Positions 7,607-26,237 of a DNA stretch of 64,000 bases are shown here, in pieces. Positions within the stretch are counted from its first letter, which is position 1. Each line of letters opens with the position of its first letter. Under the pieces are notes generated by a model. The model was not told where the DNA came from, ran no database searches, and worked only from the letters and a program-made list of their open reading frames with translations. Made by a program: the position numbers and the translations under genes. This DNA comes from Sphingomonas sp. (GTDB lineage Bacteria > Pseudomonadota > Alphaproteobacteria > Sphingomonadales > Sphingomonadaceae), in contig JAHBZH010000001.1 of NCBI GenBank assembly GCA_019635535.1, positions 1,018,995 through 1,082,994 on the forward strand, written 5' to 3'.

Positions 7607-10600
7607 CTATTCCGCCGCGAGCAGGCGCTCGGCCCCGCCCAGATCGACGCTGACCAGCCGGCTGACGCCCTTCTCCACCATCGTCACGCCGAACAGGCGG
7701 TGCATGCGGCTCATCGTCACGGCATTGTGAGTGACGATGAGGTAACGCGTGTCGGTCTCGCCCGTCATTCGGTCGAGCAGATCGCAGAACCGCTCGATAT
7801 TGGCGTCGTCCAATGGCGCGTCCACCTCGTCGAGGACGCAGATCGGCGCCGGATTGGTGAGGAAGAGCGCGAAGATGAGGGCGATGGCGGTCAATGCCTG
7901 CTCCCCGCCGGACAGCAAAGTGAGGGTGGCGAGGCGCTTGCCGGGTGGCTGCGCCATGATCTCCAGCCCCGCCTCCAGCGGATCGTCCGATTCGACCAGC
8001 TCCAGATGCGCCTGGCCGCCCTCGAACAAAGTGGTGAAGAGGCTGCGGAAATGGCGGTCCACATCCTGGAACGCGGCGAGAAGCCGGGCGCGGCCCTCAC
8101 GGTTGAGGCTGCCGATCGAGCCGCGCAGGCGGTGGATCGCCTGCCCCAGTTCCTCGCGTTCTGCCTGGCTGGCGAGATGGCTCTCCTCCAGCTCGGTGAG
8201 CTCGCTTTCGGCGACGAGATTGACCGGGCCGATCCGCTCGCGCTCCTGATTGGCGCGCTCGAGCCGGGTCGATTCGACCTGGACGACCTCGATCGACTCC
8301 TCCTCGAAGCCGACTCGTTCGGGGAGCAAAGGCGGCGGACATTCGAACTTCTCGCCGGAGATGCGGGCCATTTCGATCCGCCGGGCGTCCTGCGCCTCGG
8401 CGCGGGCGGCGGCGCCGGCGCGCGCCTCGCGGCAGGCGGCTAGCGTCTCGCCGGCCTCGGCCAGTTTGACCTCGGTCTCACGCAGCCTGTCTTCGCCCGC
8501 CCGCTCGTGCGCGGCGGCGGCACGCGCGGCTTCGGCGGCCTCGGCCGATTCGTCGGTCAGCGCGGCGATGCGCTGCTCGAAATCGTCCGGCGCGGCGGCG
8601 AGCGTTTCCGCTTCCTTCTCGGCATCGGCGATGCGGCGGCCGAACTCGGCGTCGCGCTTCTCGGCGTCGCCCGCCCGCGCGCGCCAGTCGGCCTGCTCCT
8701 TCCTGGCCGCCTCGGCGCGCTGTCGGTCGGCGGCGACGCCTCTCGCATGCGTGGCGGCCTCGGCACGCAACTCGGCGAGCGCGGCCTGCGCGGTCTCGGC
8801 GGCGGCGCGCAGCTCGGCCACCTTCACCTCGGTCGCGGCGGCATCGGGCAGGGTGGCCCAGAGCGATTCCGCTTCATCGCGGGCCTTCACCGCGTCGCGC
8901 AGATCGTCCTGTGCGGCCTCGGCACGTTCCTTGAGGCCGACGCGGCGCACGTCGAGCCGCTCGATCTCGACCGTGGCGGCATTCTCCGCCCGGCCAGCCT
9001 CGCGGATCGCCGCACCGGCTTGGGTTTCGCCCCGCCGCGCGGCTTCGGCGGCGGCGCGGGCGGCGTCCATGACCGCCAGCGCCTTTGCGGTGCGCGTTTC
9101 CGCATCTTCCACCGACCTGGCGGCGGCCGGCATGGCCTGCTCAATCTCGGCGAGGCGGTTGACCCGGATCAGCCGCTCGGCGGCGGCGGCGCCGAGGCCG
9201 CTCGCGACATAGCCGTCCCAGCGGCGCAGCTTCCCATCCAGGGTGACGAGGCGCTGGCCCACGGCGAGCGCGATCGTGCCGTCGTCGCTCTCGGTCACGC
9301 CGATCTGGCACAGGCGGCGCAGCAGGGCGGCGGGCGCCTCGACATGGTCGGCGAGCGCGGCGCAGCCGGCGGGCAGCGGCGGATCGCCCGGCAGCGGCGC
9401 GGCCCCGGCCCAGCGGCGCGGTCCGTTCTCGGTCAGCGCGGCATCCAGATCCTCGCCCAATGCGGCGGCGAGTGCGCGCTCATAGCCCGTCGCGGCGCGG
9501 ACATGATTGATCGCCCGGTCGCCGCCGGAGGTCTCGACCGCCTTGATCAGCGCCTTCGCCTCGGACTGTAACGCCGCCAGCGCGGCGCGGGCGGCGGCGG
9601 CTTCGCTTTCGGCGGCGTCGCGCGCTTCGGCGGCCTGCTGCCGTTCGGCTTCGGCCGCCGCGATCGCCGTGCCCGCCTCGGCGAGCCGCGCTTCGGCGGC
9701 TTCGCGGTCGGCGCGGGCCTGAGTCAGCGCCGCGTGCAGCGGCGCGGCATCCCCAAGCGCGGCGACCTGATCGCGGATGCGCTGCGCTTCGCTTTCGGCG
9801 CGGGCGAGTTTCTGTAGCGCCGCGTCCAGCGCGGCCTGCGCCACCCGTGCCTCGGCCTGTTCGGCGGCCTGGACGGCGCGGGCCTGACCCAAGGCGGTTT
9901 CGGCCGCGCGGGCGGCACCCTCCTGCTCGACGGTGCGGATGTCGATCGTGCCGCGCCGGCTTTCGGCATCGGCGAGGCGGGCGGCGATGCTGGTCAACTC
10001 CTCGTCCAGCCGGGCGAGCGCCGTCGCCGCGTCGTCGCGCAATGCCGCCTCGCGTTCGCGGTCGGCGACGAAGGTGCGCTGCCGCGCCGCCAGCTCGTCG
10101 ATCCGGCGCCGGATGCCGTCTTGTTCGGTGCGCAGGGCGGCAAGCTTGTGGGCCAGATCGGAGGCACGCTCACGCGCCGCTTCGGCGGCGCGGCGCTTGT
10201 CGGCGAGCTCGGTGGCGGCCTGGGTCTGCCAGGCGGCGGCGGCGCGCTGCGCCTCGGCCGCGATGCCGACCGCCGCCCCGGCGGCCTGCGCCTCCTGCTT
10301 CGCGGCCTCGGCGGCGGCCGCCGCCTCGCGCCAGCGCGCGAAGATCAGCCGGCCCTCGGCCACGCGGATCTGATCGGACAGCTTGCGGTAGCGTTCGGCG
10401 GCGCGGGCCTGGCGCTTCAGCGCGCTGGCGCGCAGCTCCATGTCGGCCAGCACTCCGTCGAGCCGGACCAGATTGGCCTCGGTCGCGCGCAATTTCTGCT
10501 CGGCATCCTTGCGGCGGACATGGAGGCCGGAGATCCCCGCCGCCTCCTCCAGCATCATCCGCCGCTCGGTCGGCTTGGCGGCGATGACGGCGCTGATCCG

Positions 10601-13108: not shown

Positions 13109-14146
13109 ATGCCCGTCGATGCCTCGCAGGCGCTTTTGTGTTGGTATGCTGTGGATAAGCGACGCCTGCCCTGGCGCGCCGAACCCGGCGATACGCCCGA
13201 TCCCTATCGGGTCTGGCTGTCCGAGATCATGCTCCAGCAGACCACGGTCGCGGCGGTGAAGCCTTATTTCGAACGGTTCACGACGCGCTGGCCCAGTGTC
13301 GTGGCGCTGGCCGCCGAGGAGGACGACGAGGTCATGCGGGCCTGGGCGGGGCTCGGCTACTATGCCCGCGCGCGCAACCTGCTCGCCTGCGCCCGCGCGA
13401 TCGTCGCCGATCATGGCGGGCGTTTCCCCAACGATGAGGCTGCGCTGCTCAACCTGCCCGGCATCGGCCCCTATACCGCCGCCGCGATCGTGGCGATCGC
13501 CTTCGGGCGGCGCGCGGTCGCGGTGGACGGCAATGTCGAGCGGGTGGTGGCGCGGCTGTTCACGGTGGCTGAGCCGCTGCCCGGCGCGCGCGCGCATATC
13601 AGGGCGCTGGCTGACAGCCTCGTGCCGGACGAAGGCGCGGGCGATTTCGCGCAGGCGATGATGGATCTGGGCTCGGCGATCTGCACCCCGCGCAATCCCG
13701 ATTGCCCGCATTGCCCGCTGCAAAGCTATTGCGCGGCGGCGCGGACGGGCGATCCGACGCGCTGGCCGATGAAGGCGCCGAAGGCCGCCAAGCCGAAGCG
13801 CGACGGCCTGGCCTATTGGCTGGAGCATGACGGCGCGGTGCGGCTGGTGCGCCGGCCCGGCAAGGGGCTGCTCGGCGGGATGTTCGCCTTGCCCGAAGCG
13901 CCGCCTATGCCGGCCGACTGGTGCGAGGCCGGGTCGGTTGACCATGTCTTCACCCATTTCGCGCTCAACATGAAGCTGCTGTGCGCGCGGGCCGAACGTC
14001 GCGACGACGGGCTGTGGTGGCCGGTCGAGAGGATCGGCGAAGCAGGCCTGCCCACTTTGTTCGCCAAGCTGGCCGCCCGGGGCGTTGCGTGGCGGGAAAG
14101 CGGGCAGCCGGCCCGGCGTGGGAGAATGAAGGAGACCGTATCTTGA
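13109..14146 (+). CDS. mutY: A/G-specific adenine glycosylase
   Basis: LPWR, SEIMLQQT, GLGYYARARNL, HhH LPGIGPYTA, VDGNV, CTPRNPDCPHCPLQSYC Fe-S motif. Confidence 0.93.
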   Translation: MPVDASQALLCWYAVDKRRLPWRAEPGDTPDPYRVWLSEIMLQQTTVAAVKPYFERFTTRWPSVVALAAEEDDEVMRAWAGLGYYARARNLLACARAIVADHGGRFPNDEAALLNLPGIGPYTAAAIVAIAFGRRAVAVDGNVERVVARLFTVAEPLPGARAHIRALADSLVPDEGAGDFAQAMMDLGSAICTPRNPDCPHCPLQSYCAAARTGDPTRWPMKAPKAAKPKRDGLAYWLEHDGAVRLVRRPGKGLLGGMFALPEAPPMPADWCEAGSVDHVFTHFALNMKLLCARAERRDDGLWWPVERIGEAGLPTLFAKLAARGVAWRESGQPARRGRMKETVS

Positions 14147-16329: not shown

Positions 16330-16711
16330 GCTTCCGGGGCTTCTGCTTTTTCTTCGGCGCAGCTGGTGTCGCCACCGGCGCGGCATCGACGGTGACGTTC
16401 GTGCGCTGCAGCCCTTCCTCGAGCCCCTCGAGAAAGCGTCGCAGGCCGTCGATCGCGGCGGCGCGCAGCGTCTCGCCCAGATGCTCCGCGTCGATGCTGA
16501 TCCGCGCGCCGAACTGCCGCGCGTCCTCGCGCGCCTCGGCCGAAGCTTCGCGCGCGGCGCGCTGGCCCCGCGCGGCGGTCGCGGCCGCCGCCTGGGCGAA
16601 GGCGCGGAACGAATCGCTCTCCGCCATCTTCACCACCTTCTTCGCCCGCTTGCGGACCTTCTTCGGGATTTCGATGCCGCCGACGCGCTTGGGAATCCGG
16701 ACCTTGGCCAT
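16301..16711 (-). CDS. Basic hypothetical protein
   Basis: ORF with strong RBS AAGGAG; N-terminal KVRIPKRVGGIEIPKK. Confidence 0.6.
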   Translation of the reverse strand: MAKVRIPKRVGGIEIPKKVRKRAKKVVKMAESDSFRAFAQAAAATAARGQRAAREASAEAREDARQFGARISIDAEHLGETLRAAAIDGLRRFLEGLEEGLQRTNVTVDAAPVATPAAPKKKQKPRKPSGPAGVAT

Positions 16712-22094: not shown

Positions 22095-22727
22095 TCACTC
22101 GGCGGCGGGCGCGGCCGCGTTGGCTTCGGCCGGCGCGGCCTCATTGCCCTCCGCGGGTGCCGCTTCGTTGCCCGCTTCGGCCGCCGGCTCCTCGACCGCG
22201 GGCGGCGGCGGGAGCTGCAGATTGCCCCCCTGCTGGTTCATGTAGAGCAGCAGGTCGGCGCGTTCCTGCGGATTGGACAGGCCTGCGAAGGTCATCCGGG
22301 TGCCCGGCGCGAAGGTGCGGGGTGAGGCCAGCCAGGCGCTCATCGTGTCCCAGTCCCAGGTGCCGCCGCGCGAGCGCAGCGCATCCGAGAAATTGAAGCC
22401 GGCATGACCGGTACCGACGGCCTCGCCCATCACGCCGTAGAGATTCGGGCCGAGGCCGTTGGCACCGCCCTGGTTGATCGTGTGGCAGGCGGCGCACTTG
22501 CGGAAGGCGCCTTCGCCGCGGGCCGCATCGGCGGTCTGCAGGAAGTGGGCGATCGGCGGCTCCGCGTCGGCGGCGCCGGACGATTCTTCCTCCACGCCCT
22601 CGATCGGATAGCCCATCGTTTCGGGGCGTTCCGACTTGAAGACCTGCCCGGTGACCAGCGTGCTGCCCAACAGGACGATGCCCGCGCCCAGCACCCATCC
22701 CGCAATCGTGTTGAACCGATCGTCCAT
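22095..22727 (-). CDS. Membrane-anchored cytochrome c (CycM/c2-like)
   Basis: N-terminal TM helix, CAACH, GPNL, PGTRMTFAGL. Confidence 0.92.
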   Translation of the reverse strand: MDDRFNTIAGWVLGAGIVLLGSTLVTGQVFKSERPETMGYPIEGVEEESSGAADAEPPIAHFLQTADAARGEGAFRKCAACHTINQGGANGLGPNLYGVMGEAVGTGHAGFNFSDALRSRGGTWDWDTMSAWLASPRTFAPGTRMTFAGLSNPQERADLLLYMNQQGGNLQLPPPPAVEEPAAEAGNEAAPAEGNEAAPAEANAAAPAAE

Positions 22728-22857
22728 GCCGCTTTCTTGCCTCCGAAGGTGCGCGGCCTCCCCTGGCCGGCTTCAAGCTGATTGGCGCCCCCTTTATGCG
22801 GGCGCGGCGCGCGCCGCAAGCCGGGCACGCACCTAAGGCGAAAGCGGGCCGGCGCAC

Positions 22858-22925
22858 TTATTCCCGTTATCCTCATTATCCACAGGCGGAATCCGTTTGG
22901 TGCGACTCACTTTTCATGACAGCCT
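22858..22925 (+). promoter_or_regulatory. Promoter module of large element 1
   Basis: Tandem TTATTCCCG-TTATCCTCA-TTATCCACA (22858-22884); GANTC at 22889 and 22904; TTGGTG-N17-CAGCCT. Confidence 0.55.
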
Positions 22926-22930
22926 TCCTT

Positions 22931-23664
22931 CCGTGGCAGAGACGATCGACCGGCAACGGACGAGAGCCTTCCCAGCCACGGCCCGAGCGAGGAGCCCTTG
23001 CGTCCCACCAGACGAAAGGTCCGAGCGGAGGCGGGGCGGCTGACGAAGCCGCCGCCAGGCGGAAGCTGCGGACTTGTCCTTTGGCGGATGCGAAAGCGGC
23101 AGGCTTCGTGAAGCGCCCAACCGGAACCGGAGGCCTTCGGGCGGACGGGACCGGGCAGGCAGGAAGAGAATCCTTCGGGGTTCGCGAACTGCCCGGTGGA
23201 AAGCGGGATCTTCGGATTTACGCACCGCCACCGGCGAGAAGGGAGGTTTCGGCCGAACGGATTGTCGGGCAGGACCGGGCCTGGTTCCCGGGAGCTGCGA
23301 AACCGGCGAGAGCCCAGGGCTTCGGCTCATGGCTCGCCAGGCGGAACCAGCGGCTTCGGCCAAGGATCCCGCCGGCTCCGGCACCAAGGCTTCGGCGGCG
23401 GTGACGGGAAGGCGGGAAGCGGAACGCGAGTTCCAAATCCGCCAAGCGGCGAACCGCCAGGGCTTCGGCCCTGACGGGGAGCCTGCGGGGAAACCCGAAC
23501 GAAGCTCACGCTTCGGGAAGGGACTCCGGGAACCGAAGCCAAGGCCCCCGGCCTGGTCAGGTTTCGAAATCGCCCTCGCGGACTGCCTCGCCTCCCAGGC
23601 TTGGTGTTCACCCGCGGCGGGACAGTGGGGGCCGGCGGCAACGCCGGCCCCCATTGCTGTTTCG
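22931..23664 (+). ncRNA. Candidate large structured ncRNA, copy 1 (about 730 nt); family not recognised
   Basis: About 9 UUCG-loop hairpins plus GAAA/GCAA loops on the + strand; ends shared with 25243-25692; own terminator; start inferred. Confidence 0.65.
23624..23664 (+). terminator. Terminator of large element 1
   Basis: TGGGGGCCGGCG-GCAA-CGCCGGCCCCCA then TTGCTGTTTC. Confidence 0.7.
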
Positions 23665-23716
23665 GCCTTGGCGCCGCCCGGCGCGCCCGATCGGCCCTGC
23701 TGCGGTTTCCCCCTGC

Positions 23717-23745
23717 TTGATCTGGCGCAAGACAGGCGCGATAGT
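23717..23745 (+). promoter_or_regulatory. Putative sigma70 promoter of the bactofilin gene
   Basis: TTGATC-N17-GATAGT upstream of RBS GAGGAGG. Confidence 0.4.
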
Positions 23746-23769
23746 CCCCGCCAAGCGAGGAGGGGCCAC

Positions 23770-24264
23770 ATGTTCTCACGCAAGGATTCGAAGCCCGGCA
23801 CGCGGTCCGGCCGATCGTCGTCGTCCGGTCTGTCCTTCATCGGGCCGGAGGTGGTGATCAGCGGCGATCTGACCACCAGCGCACAGCTCCATGTCGACGG
23901 GCGCATCGACGGCCATGTCCGTTGCGGCCAGCTTTGCCAGGGCGAAAGCGGAATCATCGCCGGCGATCTCACCGCCGACGAGGCGCGAATCGCGGGCCTG
24001 ATCGAAGGCACGGTCAACGCCGCGACGCTGGTCGTCGAGGCGACCGGGCGGATTGCCGGCGACGTGACCTACGAGACGATCAGCATCGCCGCCGGCGCGC
24101 GGATCGACGGCCGGCTCGCCCGGCGCGCGGCGCTGGCGGCCGGGCCGGGTGCCGACGACGTGCTGATCGCGACGCCCACCACGCCCGCCGGCAAGGGCAA
24201 GGCCGCCAGCAGCACCGACCTCTTCCCCGCCGGCAGCAAGCCCGAGGCGCTGGTGGTCGATTGA
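23770..24264 (+). CDS. Bactofilin (polymer-forming cytoskeletal protein)
   Basis: SFIG...ISGDL...LHVDGRIDGHV...GE.G.I.G.L.A....IAG.IEG.V beta-helix pattern; strong RBS before ATG 23770. Confidence 0.88.
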   Translation: MFSRKDSKPGTRSGRSSSSGLSFIGPEVVISGDLTTSAQLHVDGRIDGHVRCGQLCQGESGIIAGDLTADEARIAGLIEGTVNAATLVVEATGRIAGDVTYETISIAAGARIDGRLARRAALAAGPGADDVLIATPTTPAGKGKAASSTDLFPAGSKPEALVVD

Positions 24265-24728
24265 TGGCCAAGCATGTCGCGACGATCGACTGGTCTTCGG
24301 ACGGCCAATTCGCCAGCGGGCGCTACAGCCGGCGTCACGAATGGCGCTTCGACGGCGGCGCCGTGGTGCCGGGCTCCGCGTCGCCCGACGTGGTGCGTGT
24401 GCCCTTTTCCGATCCCGCCGCAGTCGATCCGGAGGAGGCCCTGGTCGCCGCAGCCTCGTCCTGCCACATGCTCGCCTTCCTGTGGGTCGCGCACAAGGCG
24501 GGGTTCGAGGTGGCGAGCTATCGCGACGATGCGGAAGGCACGATGAGCGAGGTCGCGCCGGGGCGCCTGGGCATGACCCGGATCGTGCTGCGGCCCCGGA
24601 TCGTCTTCGCGGGACGCGCGCCGGCCGGCGAGGAGCTGGACCGCCTCCACCACGACGCGCACGAGCAGTGTTTCATCGCCAATTCGATCAAGAGCGAGAT
24701 CGTCATCGAAGTCCCCGCCGAAGCTTGA
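24264..24728 (+). CDS. OsmC family protein
   Basis: YSRRHEW, DPEEALVAAASSCHML, CFIANS. Confidence 0.88.
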   Translation: MAKHVATIDWSSDGQFASGRYSRRHEWRFDGGAVVPGSASPDVVRVPFSDPAAVDPEEALVAAASSCHMLAFLWVAHKAGFEVASYRDDAEGTMSEVAPGRLGMTRIVLRPRIVFAGRAPAGEELDRLHHDAHEQCFIANSIKSEIVIEVPAEA

Positions 24729-24729
24729 G

Positions 24730-25128
24730 CTAAAGGCCCCACCAGGGCAGCTTGGCGTAATAGCCCGTCACGTCCTCATAATCGCGCGGTTGCGGCCGGT
24801 CGGCCTGGTCGAGCCGCATGGTCGGCGCCACTTCGAGTTGCTCGCGGGTGAGATCGATGGCATAGGCGTCGAGATCGACATCGTAGGTCAGCACTTCCCA
24901 CGGCACCGGATGGGCCTTTTCGCTCAGCCCGAGAAAACCGCCGAAGCTCAGCACCGCATAGGCGACCTGGCCGCTGCTTTTGTCGATCATTACCGAATGG
25001 ATCGCCCCGAGCCGCTCCCCAGCGCGATTGTAGACCGGCGTGCCCTCGACGCGCCGTGACGAGATCAGCGCGTTCCGCCGATCGAGCGCCTCGCTTTCGT
25101 TGAGCAGGGGCCGCGCATCCTGAGACAT
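24730..25128 (-). CDS. PRC-barrel domain protein
   Basis: LISSRRVEGTPVYN, IDKSSGQVAYAVLSFGGFLG, PVPW; RBS AAGGAG before ATG 25128. Confidence 0.88.
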   Translation of the reverse strand: MSQDARPLLNESEALDRRNALISSRRVEGTPVYNRAGERLGAIHSVMIDKSSGQVAYAVLSFGGFLGLSEKAHPVPWEVLTYDVDLDAYAIDLTREQLEVAPTMRLDQADRPQPRDYEDVTGYYAKLPWWGL

Positions 25129-25242
25129 GGTCCGTCTCCTTTCCGCCCCCGGAGCGATCGAATATAGCAGGATCGACCGGCGAAAGCACGCTTTCCCGGC
25201 GGGCGCTATGGCGCAGGCGGATGTCTGGAGAGGCTCGATACC

Positions 25243-25283
25243 GCTCAAAGCAATGGGGGCCGACGTCGCCGCCGGCCCCCACT
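25243..25283 (-). terminator. Terminator of large element 2
   Basis: On -: TGGGGGCCGGCG-GCGA-CGTCGGCCCCCA then TTGCTTTG; 33/35 identical to 23624-23658. Confidence 0.7.
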
Positions 25284-25692
25284 TCGCCCGAATCCAAATC
25301 CCGCGCCGGTGAGGGCTTGGGCTCGTCCCGGGAGAGGTTCCGGCCGAGGCCTCGCGGCCCCGGTCGGTCCCTTGGGTTCCATCTGAACGGTCTTGCGACC
25401 TTCGTCCGGTTCCCTGACCTGAAATGTCCCGAAGCATTGCTGCCTCGTCGCCTTTCAGATCGAGATCAGATCTCGGCCGAAGCTTCGACATGATCCCTTC
25501 GCGTTCCTTCCGTCCGAAGACTTCCGGTTCACCGGAGCAGCTGGAAAAGTGGGTTCGGCTTTCGCCTCGCGCTTCTTTCCGCTTCCCCGTCCAGCGCTTC
25601 TTCAGCTTTCTTCCTTGCGGAATTCCGCCATTTCCACCCTGGTCGCTTTCAGCCCTGCTCGTCCGTTGCCGGCCGATCATTCCTGACCGCGA
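25243..25692 (-). ncRNA. Candidate large structured ncRNA, copy 2 (about 450 nt); paralogue of copy 1
   Basis: GNRA and UUCG hairpins on the - strand; shared 5' motif, promoter module and terminator. Confidence 0.65.
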
Positions 25693-25698
25693 AGTTGC

Positions 25699-25777
25699 AG
25701 GCTGACTCGGTTTCCCGAGTCGCGCCAAGCGGAATCTTGCGTATCCTGCCTGTGGATAACGGGGATATCGTGGATAA
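25699..25777 (-). promoter_or_regulatory. Promoter module of large element 2
   Basis: On -: TTATCCACG-ATATCCCCG-TTATCCACA (25777-25751); GANTC at 25704, 25717, 25732; TTGGCG-N18-CAGCCT. Confidence 0.55.
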
Positions 25778-25780
25778 GAT

Positions 25781-26155
25781 TCAAGGGGCGGGCTTGGCGC
25801 CACCGTCGCCAACCGGCGGGGCGTTGCCGCCCGGCACCATGGCCGCGGCCCCCGGGACGATCTCGCGGATGCACTGCATCGTCGCGTCCTGAGCGCCGGA
25901 GCGGGAGACATCGTCGCCTTCGTTCATCAGGTCGCGGGCGCTCTTGCCCGTCATGTGCCGGTCGACGGCACATTCGCAGATCCGCTGGAAGTCAACGCCG
26001 GCGGGCGCGGCTGCGGCCCGTGAGCCCTGGACGCAGCCCTCAACCGCCTTCTCGCGATAGGATTCGCGGAAGCTGTTGTCGAACGCGCTGCCCGGGCCGC
26101 AAGCTGCGAGCAGAACGATGACGGAAACGGAGCCGATGCCGATTGCGAGACGCAT
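25781..26155 (-). CDS. Hypothetical lipoprotein with additional Cys residues
   Basis: Lipobox LAAC; C...CEC...C pattern. Confidence 0.65.
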   Translation of the reverse strand: MRLAIGIGSVSVIVLLAACGPGSAFDNSFRESYREKAVEGCVQGSRAAAAPAGVDFQRICECAVDRHMTGKSARDLMNEGDDVSRSGAQDATMQCIREIVPGAAAMVPGGNAPPVGDGGAKPAP

Positions 26156-26237
26156 GACCTTGATCCCCCTGTCGATTCAAGCGAGCCCCCCGATCCTCGC
26201 CGGACCCTTCGCTTGTAGTCGACCGGACGCGGTGATC

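Follow-up and report, generated by a model that had tools for sequence, protein, structure and literature searches.

The stretch of Sphingomonas sp. DNA analysed here (64,000 nucleotides, hereafter the window) carries at positions 22931-23664 of the + strand a long run without a recognisable protein, which lies between a conserved block of DnaA-box-like 9-mers and a bactofilin gene (PF04519; 23770-24264). A shorter paralogue of the same element (copy 2) is found on the - strand, upstream of a PRC-barrel gene. Judged by sequence and conservation, 22931-23664 (copy 1) is a real gene for a heavily folded non-coding RNA of about 730 nt. The interval of about 22931-23662 is an autonomous, conserved and structured RNA gene, whose transcript is predicted to fold into about 35 short helices; its relatives make up a family of large structured RNAs that matched no catalogue searched and whose promoter is of an unusual replication or cell-cycle type. 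For the whole picture of the gene, its proposed control and its proposed product, the balance in our assessment tips slightly in favour.

The statistics of substitutions and gaps indicate that the region is not protein-coding. In an alignment of ten copy-1 orthologues (893 columns, mean identity 71%), bases changed evenly over the three codon phases (0.61/0.62/0.64), and gap lengths modulo 3 were distributed as 39/116/98, with only 39 of 253 gaps being multiples of three. Two long open reading frames (ORFs) lie over the region, one of 396 amino acids (aa) on the + strand, in frame with the bactofilin gene, and one of 367 aa on the - strand. All six frames are nearly stop-free, with just 0-4 stops per frame in all orthologues. 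Since open frames are expected at 68% G+C, these ORFs, including the in-frame extension of bactofilin, carry no weight. The sequence-only reading of the locus had recognised no protein here and had considered that protein-like codon conservation would speak against an RNA gene; the codon-phase and indel statistics contain no such signal.

The consensus structure computed with RNAalifold on the same alignment comprises 200 pairs in 38 helices. Both sides of the pair had changed at 59 of the 200 pairs. Column shuffles gave 29.4 ± 3.3 such pairs, with none of 500 shuffles reaching 59, and a slid control, in which the 3′ partners were moved by 1-3 columns, gave 15-25. By these counts, the RNA structure is maintained by compensatory substitutions beyond the level of the controls. 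Helix P1 of the 5′ domain persists in different subtypes and genera, four of its six pairs showing compensatory changes; the comparison between subtypes was made on 18 sequences picked by hand, since an automated extraction over 66 members gave inconsistent 5′ domains. Covariation, which had been suggested as a check on the RNA gene, thus turned out to be strong. Only the + strand accommodates the G-U pairs and the tetraloops of the UUCG and GNRA types, and the RNA strand was assigned from these features together with the promoter and the terminator, not from minimum free energy (MFE) z-scores.

Stable hairpins are dense at the locus. UUCG loops closed by at least 3 bp were counted in every 734-nt segment of the 2.75-Mb genome, on either strand. 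The locus has seven of them per 734 nt, against a genome mean of 0.23 per segment; this is the genome-wide maximum, and no other locus has six or more. All eight tetraloop hairpins listed in the sequence-only reading were recovered, with coordinates within 1 nt, and two further UUCG hairpins were added (Table 1). In the predicted folds of 67 family members, 750 hairpins were counted, including 199 UUCG and 198 GNRA tetraloops. Internal loops were mostly tandem purine mismatches (GA/GA 59, AA/GA 36, GAA/GGA 20, GGA/GAA 17), and the predicted unpaired bases were 43% A and 29% G, in line with the purine-rich linkers described earlier. The second-highest density of TTCG hairpin-like sequences on the + strand (5 per 734 nt) was seen at about 9555-10290 of the window, amid internal direct repeats (D6, D12, D16 and D20), and is probably repetitive coding sequence.

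In the copy-1 lineage the 5′ domain, the long hairpin domain of 23030-23118, the 3′ domain and the terminator are conserved. The P1 region contains a hairpin, CCGG(A/C)AACGG, that occurs in about 40 of the 67 members. Helix 5, in the long hairpin domain, rests on sequence conservation rather than covariation, because 16 of its 20 pairs never vary among the ten orthologues. In two orthologues the C-rich loop hairpin of the 3′ domain is replaced by a UUCG hairpin. The terminator helix (helix 38) has 13 pairs, 100% paired among the ten orthologues, two of them with compensatory changes. The middle, with UUCG loops at 23133, 23168, 23207, 23245, 23317, 23352 and 23389 and G.A-type internal loops, evolves fast, and in several species hairpin modules of 32, 39-41, 80 or 190 nt have been duplicated in tandem. 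Since the middle grows by module duplication, the elements differ in length, from about 0.38 to 1.57 kb. The module at 23448-23483 combines a 3×3 purine internal loop (GAA/GGA) with a C.A mismatch; its recurring form, 5′-GG-(N)GAA-CCGC-hairpin-GCGG-GGA(N)-CC, is present once in copy 1, in a related form in copy 2, and in up to about eight repeats in two other elements (L022 and L023). Apart from the CCGG(A/C)AACGG (GNRA) and UUCG hairpins, no word of at least 8 nt is common to most members.

The promoter region begins with three head-to-tail 9-mers, all in direct orientation. The third, TTATCCACA, is a perfect DnaA-box consensus and the two others are degenerate. In an alignment of the promoter and 5′ block of 66 elements (A4), no block of the family is better conserved than this array: 11 of its columns never vary, among them those of the perfect box. 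The box matches the DnaA consensus TTATNCACA and keeps one of two spacings to the core promoter. The 9-mer TTATCCACA occurs just eight times in the whole genome. Besides the two RNA genes, copies precede dnaB (G000 C1:2688661) and dciA, the latter copy at 13142-13150 (-) of the window, about 60-70 nt upstream of the DciA (PF05258) gene at about 13070-12515 (-), which suggests a small DnaA regulon containing the helicase and its loader. Two sites 138 nt apart at G000 C1:2745592-2745730 (-), namely another perfect box TTATCCACA (2745730) and TTATCCAC (2745592), which agrees with that box over the first eight bases, lie upstream of an ORF with an MraZ-like N-terminus that would start a division and cell-wall cluster; Pfam on the tested fragment did not confirm MraZ.

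The array is followed by a core promoter with the family consensus GCTT-N3-4-CGA(C/A)TC-N8-9-TGACAGCTT, and helix P1 begins a few bases later. The second of its two GANTC positions, 3-4 nt past the -35-like hexamer, is nearly invariant: it is a GANTC in 65 of 66 elements, solely as GACTC (46) or GAATC (20). On the other strand it reads (C/T)GA(G/T)TCG and matches the extended GcrA motif. This motif is YGAKTCK, and GcrA-dependent sites in Caulobacter cluster around -20 or +2 to +30 (PMC4647560). A GcrA gene is encoded in the genome of the window (146 bits). The hexamer ACAGCC follows the -35-like hexamer after 17 nt. Canonical sigma-70, sigma-54, sigma-32 and EcfG readings of the conserved block were tried by eye and by scan, and none fits. 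Because the consensus scan gave no canonical sigma-70 -10 element, the putative transcription start near 22931 (± 5) is placed by spacing; relative to this start, the YGAKTCK-matching GANTC would lie within about 40 bp.

The spacing between the last box and the GANTC takes two forms: 29 elements have 18-19 nt and 27 elements have 27-29 nt, a difference of about 10 bp, or about one helical turn. With a start near 22931, the box array would span about -73 to -47, and would lie 10 bp further upstream in the long-spacer class; such a position is activator-like, being typical of upstream activators. DnaA bound to the phased boxes may therefore control transcription of the RNA, a proposal that we regard as evenly balanced. 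GcrA, acting on a predicted CcrM-methylated GANTC at about -25, would add a further control. With moderate confidence, we infer such joint DnaA/GcrA control, by which synthesis of the RNA would be timed to replication initiation and S phase. A replication-origin element was also considered and rejected: the origin region, with hemE, gidA and parB at 0.60-0.61 Mb, is about 440 kb away from the element at 1.042 Mb.

Table 1. Features of the RNA gene (copy 1), its promoter, the paralogue and the downstream gene, in window coordinates.
Feature	Position	Strand	Remarks
Three head-to-tail DnaA-box-like 9-mers, TTATTCCCG, TTATCCTCA, TTATCCACA	22858-22884	+	from sequence; zero-spaced
Core-promoter block GAATCC-GTTTGGTG-CGACTC	22889-22908	+	alignment A4
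Two CcrM-type GANTC sites	22889-22893, 22904-22908	+	flank the -35-like hexamer
-35-like hexamer TTTGGT	22896-22901	+	family consensus GCTTGN
Likely -10 region TGACAGCC(TT)	22917-22930	+	conserved block in A4; ACAGCC at 22919-22924
5′ domain	22931-22982	+	helices 1-3; P1 (CCGUGGC/GCCACGG) encloses an internal helix and the CCG-GCAA-CGG hairpin
Hairpin CCG-GCAA-CGG	22950-22959	+	
Long hairpin domain GGCGGGGCGGCUGACGAAGCCGCCGCC...GCGGCAGGCUUCGUGAAGCGCCC	23030-23118	+	helices 5-8; nearly invariant in the copy-1 lineage
Variable middle, serial short hairpins	23123-23447	+	helices 9-27; bears most compensatory changes
Two further UUCG hairpins	23133-23142, 23389-23396	+	
Hairpin GAAUCC-UUCG-GGGUUC	23168-23183	+	
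Hairpin GAUC-UUCG-GAUU	23207-23218	+	
Hairpin GGU-UUCG-GCC	23245-23254	+	
Hairpin GGGC-UUCG-GCUC	23317-23328	+	
Hairpin GGC-UUCG-GCC	23352-23361	+	
Conserved module GGC-GAA-CCG-C-CAGGGC-UUCG-GCCCUG-A-CGG-GGA-GCC	23448-23483	+	helices 28-29
Hairpin CAGGGC-UUCG-GCCCUG	23459-23474	+	
3′ domain	23486-23623	+	helices 30-37; hairpins CGGG-GAAA-CCCG, GAAGC-UCAC-GCUUC and GCCU-CCC-AGGC
Hairpin CGGG-GAAA-CCCG	23486-23497	+	
Intrinsic terminator GUGGGGGCCGGCG-GCAA-CGCCGGCCCCCAU, then UGCUGUUU	23625-23662	+	helix 38
Bactofilin gene (PF04519)	23770-24264	+	
Shorter paralogue (copy 2)	25245-25788	-	9-mers 25778-25752; GANTC hairpin and 5′ domain with CCGGCAACGG; terminator 25283-25249

The two copies in the window share the upstream block, the 5′ motif around CCGGCAACGG and a terminator matching at 94% (inverted repeat I6), and little in the middle. 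A sequence model of the promoter and 5′ block built from alignment A4 (R1) scored copy 2 at 60.9 bits and copy 1 at 60.6 bits, and BLAST against the whole genome found these two copies only. Among genomes of the same genus, 36 of 37 matched by BLAST; the upstream block and the terminator gave the clearest matches and stood 0.35-1.5 kb apart. From this genus 49 elements were extracted. A pattern scan of 185,579 species genomes added about 20 more; its non-sphingomonad matches were mostly Firmicutes DnaA-box clusters with an identical zero-spaced tandem layout. Named hosts include Sphingomonas, Sphingomicrobium, Allosphingosinicella, Sphingosinicella, Hephaestia and Chakrabartia. Within the Sphingomonadaceae, R1 matched over its full length in 86 of 401 genomes, representing 29 of the 112 genera sampled; most genomes had one copy and some had two or three. 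Elsewhere in the order there were essentially no matches. The members have a common layout: three 9-mers, a spacer of two lengths, the GANTC core promoter, P1 with its GNRA hairpin, a hairpin-rich middle and a terminator. Throughout the family, the hairpins of the middle carry cUUCGg or GNRA caps and are broken by G.A loops in tandem.

Some variants and neighbours of these elements were also observed. In one other genus the promoter module is present twice in tandem, about 430-500 nt apart (G273:C2:1374890-1375417, G337:C57:22211-22744, G392:C1:1712021-1712610 and G436:C19:90510-91084), implying tandemly duplicated RNA genes. A lysine-rich hypothetical protein of about 120-160 aa (MAKGDKKAKK...KIPKRIAGVKV...AAALLAAAAALR...) is encoded directly upstream of one type of RNA-gene paralogue, its gene ending 0-200 nt before the 9-mers (L036, L037, L039, L040, L042, L044, L045, L035, L028, L024, L025, L020 and L038). 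This gene is preceded by a cupredoxin-like gene, and a weak homologue lies at 16409-16711 (-) of the window. The protein had no Pfam or NCBIfam match, and its 259 homologues are apparently confined to Allosphingosinicella. As a partner protein, the lysine-rich neighbour (about 125 aa, in at least 13 genomes) was rejected for being apparently confined to one genus; it cannot explain an RNA family that spans 29 genera.

A probable sister RNA gene directly follows argG in three of 12 genomes of other Sphingomonadaceae genera (L183, L186 and L190). This stretch has inverted DnaA boxes, the core motif GCTTG...CGACTC and a hairpin-rich non-coding run. No such gene follows argG in 8-9 of the 12 genomes checked, the genome of the window has a coding gene directly after argG, and argG is near none of 67 elements. 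The argG-linked RNA differs from the present family in its locus, in the inverted orientation of its boxes and in having no obvious similarity in the RNA body; homology is nevertheless likely, and the two are probably sister families with a common promoter logic.

At the gathering threshold, a search of the whole window against Rfam 15, which holds models for OLE, GOLLD, ROOL, raiA, HEARO, tmRNA, RNase P, SRP, 6S and group I/II introns, detected just tRNA and the serC leader, both elsewhere, and at E≤10 the interval 22700-26200 gave only chance-level matches of at most 21 bits. Eighteen loci from other genera had no Rfam 15 match either. The sequence-only reading had seen no hallmark of tmRNA, RNase P, SRP, 6S RNA or introns and had proposed an independent large non-coding RNA of a family that it could not name, to be given up if a known Rfam family were hit. 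None was, and the promoter module, the terminator and the covariation described above support the proposal. No description of the RNA family was found in a full-text literature search; the lone mention of Sphingomonas in PMC8632094 concerns the odc1 motif.

As for function, we tentatively propose that the RNA is a long-lived, trans-acting molecule whose repeated stable modules would serve as a multivalent scaffold or decoy for a protein, or would let it assemble by itself into an RNA particle. We rate this idea as possible and well short of even. It is drawn from ends locked in helices, from stable and inert capped hairpins, from G.A loops suited for docking, and from a module number that is free while sequence matters little. 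The G.A loops would serve as docking sites for protein or RNA. The share of UUCG and GNRA loops among the predicted hairpins, the G.A loops, the range of element length and the tandem duplications all speak for multivalent modules, and action through one base-pairing seed is unlikely.

Several points weigh against this picture of the gene, its control and its product. We infer the start, end, abundance and stability of the transcript from the DNA, and DnaA binding, its sign (activation or repression) and the methylation of GANTC are predictions. The sigma-70 consensus scan found no canonical -10 element. In the RNAalifold consensus, 91.3% of cells are paired, a percentage inflated by the derivation of the structure from the same alignment in which the pairs were counted; the excess of double changes, less affected by the shared alignment, is the sounder figure. 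MFE z-scores are modest and similar for both strands (-2.7 vs -2.2), and were discarded as a test of strand or structure, being uninformative at this G+C content. The poorly conserved middle could also mean that only the ends matter. Finally, no partner protein was identified, CsrA being absent and the lysine-rich neighbour confined to one genus.

Other explanations of the locus have to be weighed against an autonomous structured RNA. The element might be the precursor or carrier of a base-pairing small RNA, with C/U-rich loops (CCACCA at about 23000 and CGCCUCCC at about 23592) or the terminator-bearing 3′ end pairing with Shine-Dalgarno (SD) regions of mRNAs, and the rest acting as a scaffold. 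Anti-SD-like CUCCC seeds are typical of alphaproteobacterial small RNAs, the C-rich loops are kept in 7-8 of the ten orthologues, and the purine-rich, A-R-N-like linkers could bind Hfq. However, two or three orthologues have inert UUCG hairpins at exactly those loops, no block of at least 8 nt is common to the family, hairpins aside, and 0.4-1.5 kb with about 35 helices is far beyond what a seed carrier needs. We consider a small-RNA precursor unlikely.

A cis-acting leader or attenuator, namely a 5′ untranslated region (UTR) of the bactofilin gene (or, for copy 2, of the PRC-barrel gene) with conditional read-through of the terminator, is quite improbable. Each copy in the window has a same-strand gene after it, and in 14 loci of the genus bactofilin follows in the same orientation after 108-315 nt. 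It is absent, however, from the loci of other genera, and neighbours differ between paralogues and genera, whereas a leader or riboswitch would be expected at a constant co-oriented position before a coherent set of genes. Of 51 elements, 32 are followed by a gene of the same orientation and 19 by one of the opposite orientation, at times at a distance of just 6-18 nt; this speaks against a 5′ UTR. The terminator has an imperfect, broken U tract, for which reason a simple terminator scan did not call it; the stem nevertheless is a conserved one of 13-15 bp of G+C (23625-23654, followed by AUUGCUGUUU), retained across genera, and closes the region as the sequence-only reading had it. That reading had also argued against a 5′ UTR on the ground that bactofilin has its own promoter and ribosome-binding site. 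The ribosome-binding site was confirmed (AGGAGG), whereas for the promoter a plausible CTTGAT-N18-GATAGT at about 23706-23735 was seen by eye and was not called by the scan; its conclusion is supported by the opposite neighbours and by the promoter module and terminator of the RNA itself. No riboswitch or leader family of Rfam matched the locus.

It is also conceivable, if very improbable, that the functional unit is the DNA, a DnaA-titrating or -reactivating locus of the datA or DARS type whose transcription would be incidental or would modulate DnaA occupancy. No part of the locus is better conserved than the boxes, and the DARS sites of E. coli are defined by clusters of three DnaA boxes. 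Such a locus, however, would leave unexplained the compensatory changes over 700 nt, the terminator and the strand-specific tetraloops, as well as the boxes keeping helical phase with a conserved core promoter, and its three boxes all stand in direct orientation.

That the region encodes a small or low-complexity protein, or extends bactofilin at its N-terminus by way of the open frame 23074-24264, is hardly credible: the long open frames on both strands that favour it are expected at this G+C content, 3-nt periodicity is lacking, gap lengths ignore the reading frame, length varies from 0.38 to 1.57 kb, and bactofilin homology begins only at the ATG at 23770. Equally implausible is mobile or repetitive DNA (a miniature inverted-repeat transposable element or a repetitive extragenic palindrome-like sequence) or an assembly or alignment artefact, which could draw on the two inverted copies 1.6 kb apart with near-identical 35-nt ends and on the hairpin-rich tandem modules of the middles, but meets just 1-3 copies per genome at syntenic positions, no transposase or target duplications seen, and a directional promoter and terminator instead of terminal inverted repeats.

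Known bacterial RNA classes larger than about 400 nt number only a handful, and each gave unexpected biology, such as RNA-only cages and membrane ribonucleoproteins (RNPs). The structured RNA family proposed here is widespread in Sphingomonas and its relatives, which are well studied, cultivable and genetically tractable; being usually single-copy and having an informative promoter, it is directly testable. If the DnaA/GcrA wiring is true, one may ask which role an RNA has in the cell cycle of Alphaproteobacteria, and to our knowledge no other large structured RNA stands under the replication initiator. The middle, expanding by duplication, is a natural experiment in the growth of a large RNA. 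More speculatively, the present family may belong to a wider, undescribed class of large structured RNAs wired to DnaA through phased box arrays, an 'RNA arm' of the DnaA regulon, although we find this doubtful. RNAs of such a class, if related in function, might signal the state of replication or act back on it, for instance in the form of a multivalent particle binding a replication, nucleoid or cell-cycle protein, with the hairpin modules setting the binding capacity.

Among known RNAs, CsrB/CsrC and RsmX/Y/Z resemble the present family in their variable number of repeated short stem-loops, in GGA-containing purine-rich motifs, in copy numbers that differ between species and in paralogues within a genome. 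Unlike them, the present RNA is larger, has conserved 5′ and 3′ domains, and carries inert UUCG and GNRA loops that do not present GGA. A CsrA sponge, prompted by repeated CAGGGAUCC-like motifs, was considered and found unsupported. CsrA (PF02599) is absent from the genome of the window and 40 relatives (41 genomes, with positive controls), so the RNA is not a CsrB-like sponge. In its proposed mode of action, the RNA may be likened to 6S RNA and Ms1, which are stable, abundant, highly paired, trans-acting and protein-sequestering; it differs from them in being 3-8 times larger and in having no long rod with a central bubble. The genome has a separate full-length 6S (RF00013) candidate at G000 C1:1961049-1961205 (+), scoring 45.6 bits with a gathering threshold of 46.4 (E=6e-8), and RF00013 had no match at the RNA locus. 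The element is therefore not the 6S RNA of this genome, and its reading as a 6S RNA or a replacement for it was dropped.

The sequence-only reading had compared the RNA in size with OLE, GOLLD and ROOL, and the comparison is fair for a family of about 0.38-1.57 kb. Like these RNAs and the raiA-motif RNA, the members are independent genes of several hundred nt with many covarying helices, no coding capacity, abundant GNRA-type loops and purine-rich internal loops. OLE, GOLLD, ROOL and raiA RNAs are described either as of unknown function or as RNA-only or RNP assemblies (PMC5737381; bioRxiv 10.1101/2024.12.08.627333; PMC12968392). The present family does not match the Rfam models of these RNAs, has its hosts in the Alphaproteobacteria (Sphingomonadaceae), and possesses a far more plastic middle, with repeated UUCG-capped modules and a four-fold range of length. 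We know of no report of a promoter with DnaA boxes and GANTC for OLE, GOLLD, ROOL or raiA RNAs.

The closest parallels for such a promoter are the DnaA and GcrA/CcrM promoters of Caulobacter crescentus (e.g. those of mipZ and ftsZ), which likewise have one or more consensus DnaA boxes upstream and a high-ranking YGAKTCK methylation site between -35 and -10. The Caulobacter promoters drive protein genes, whereas the predicted promoter described here would drive a large structured RNA. Two traits set the present family apart from them, its three direct 9-mers with zero spacing and its two spacing classes.

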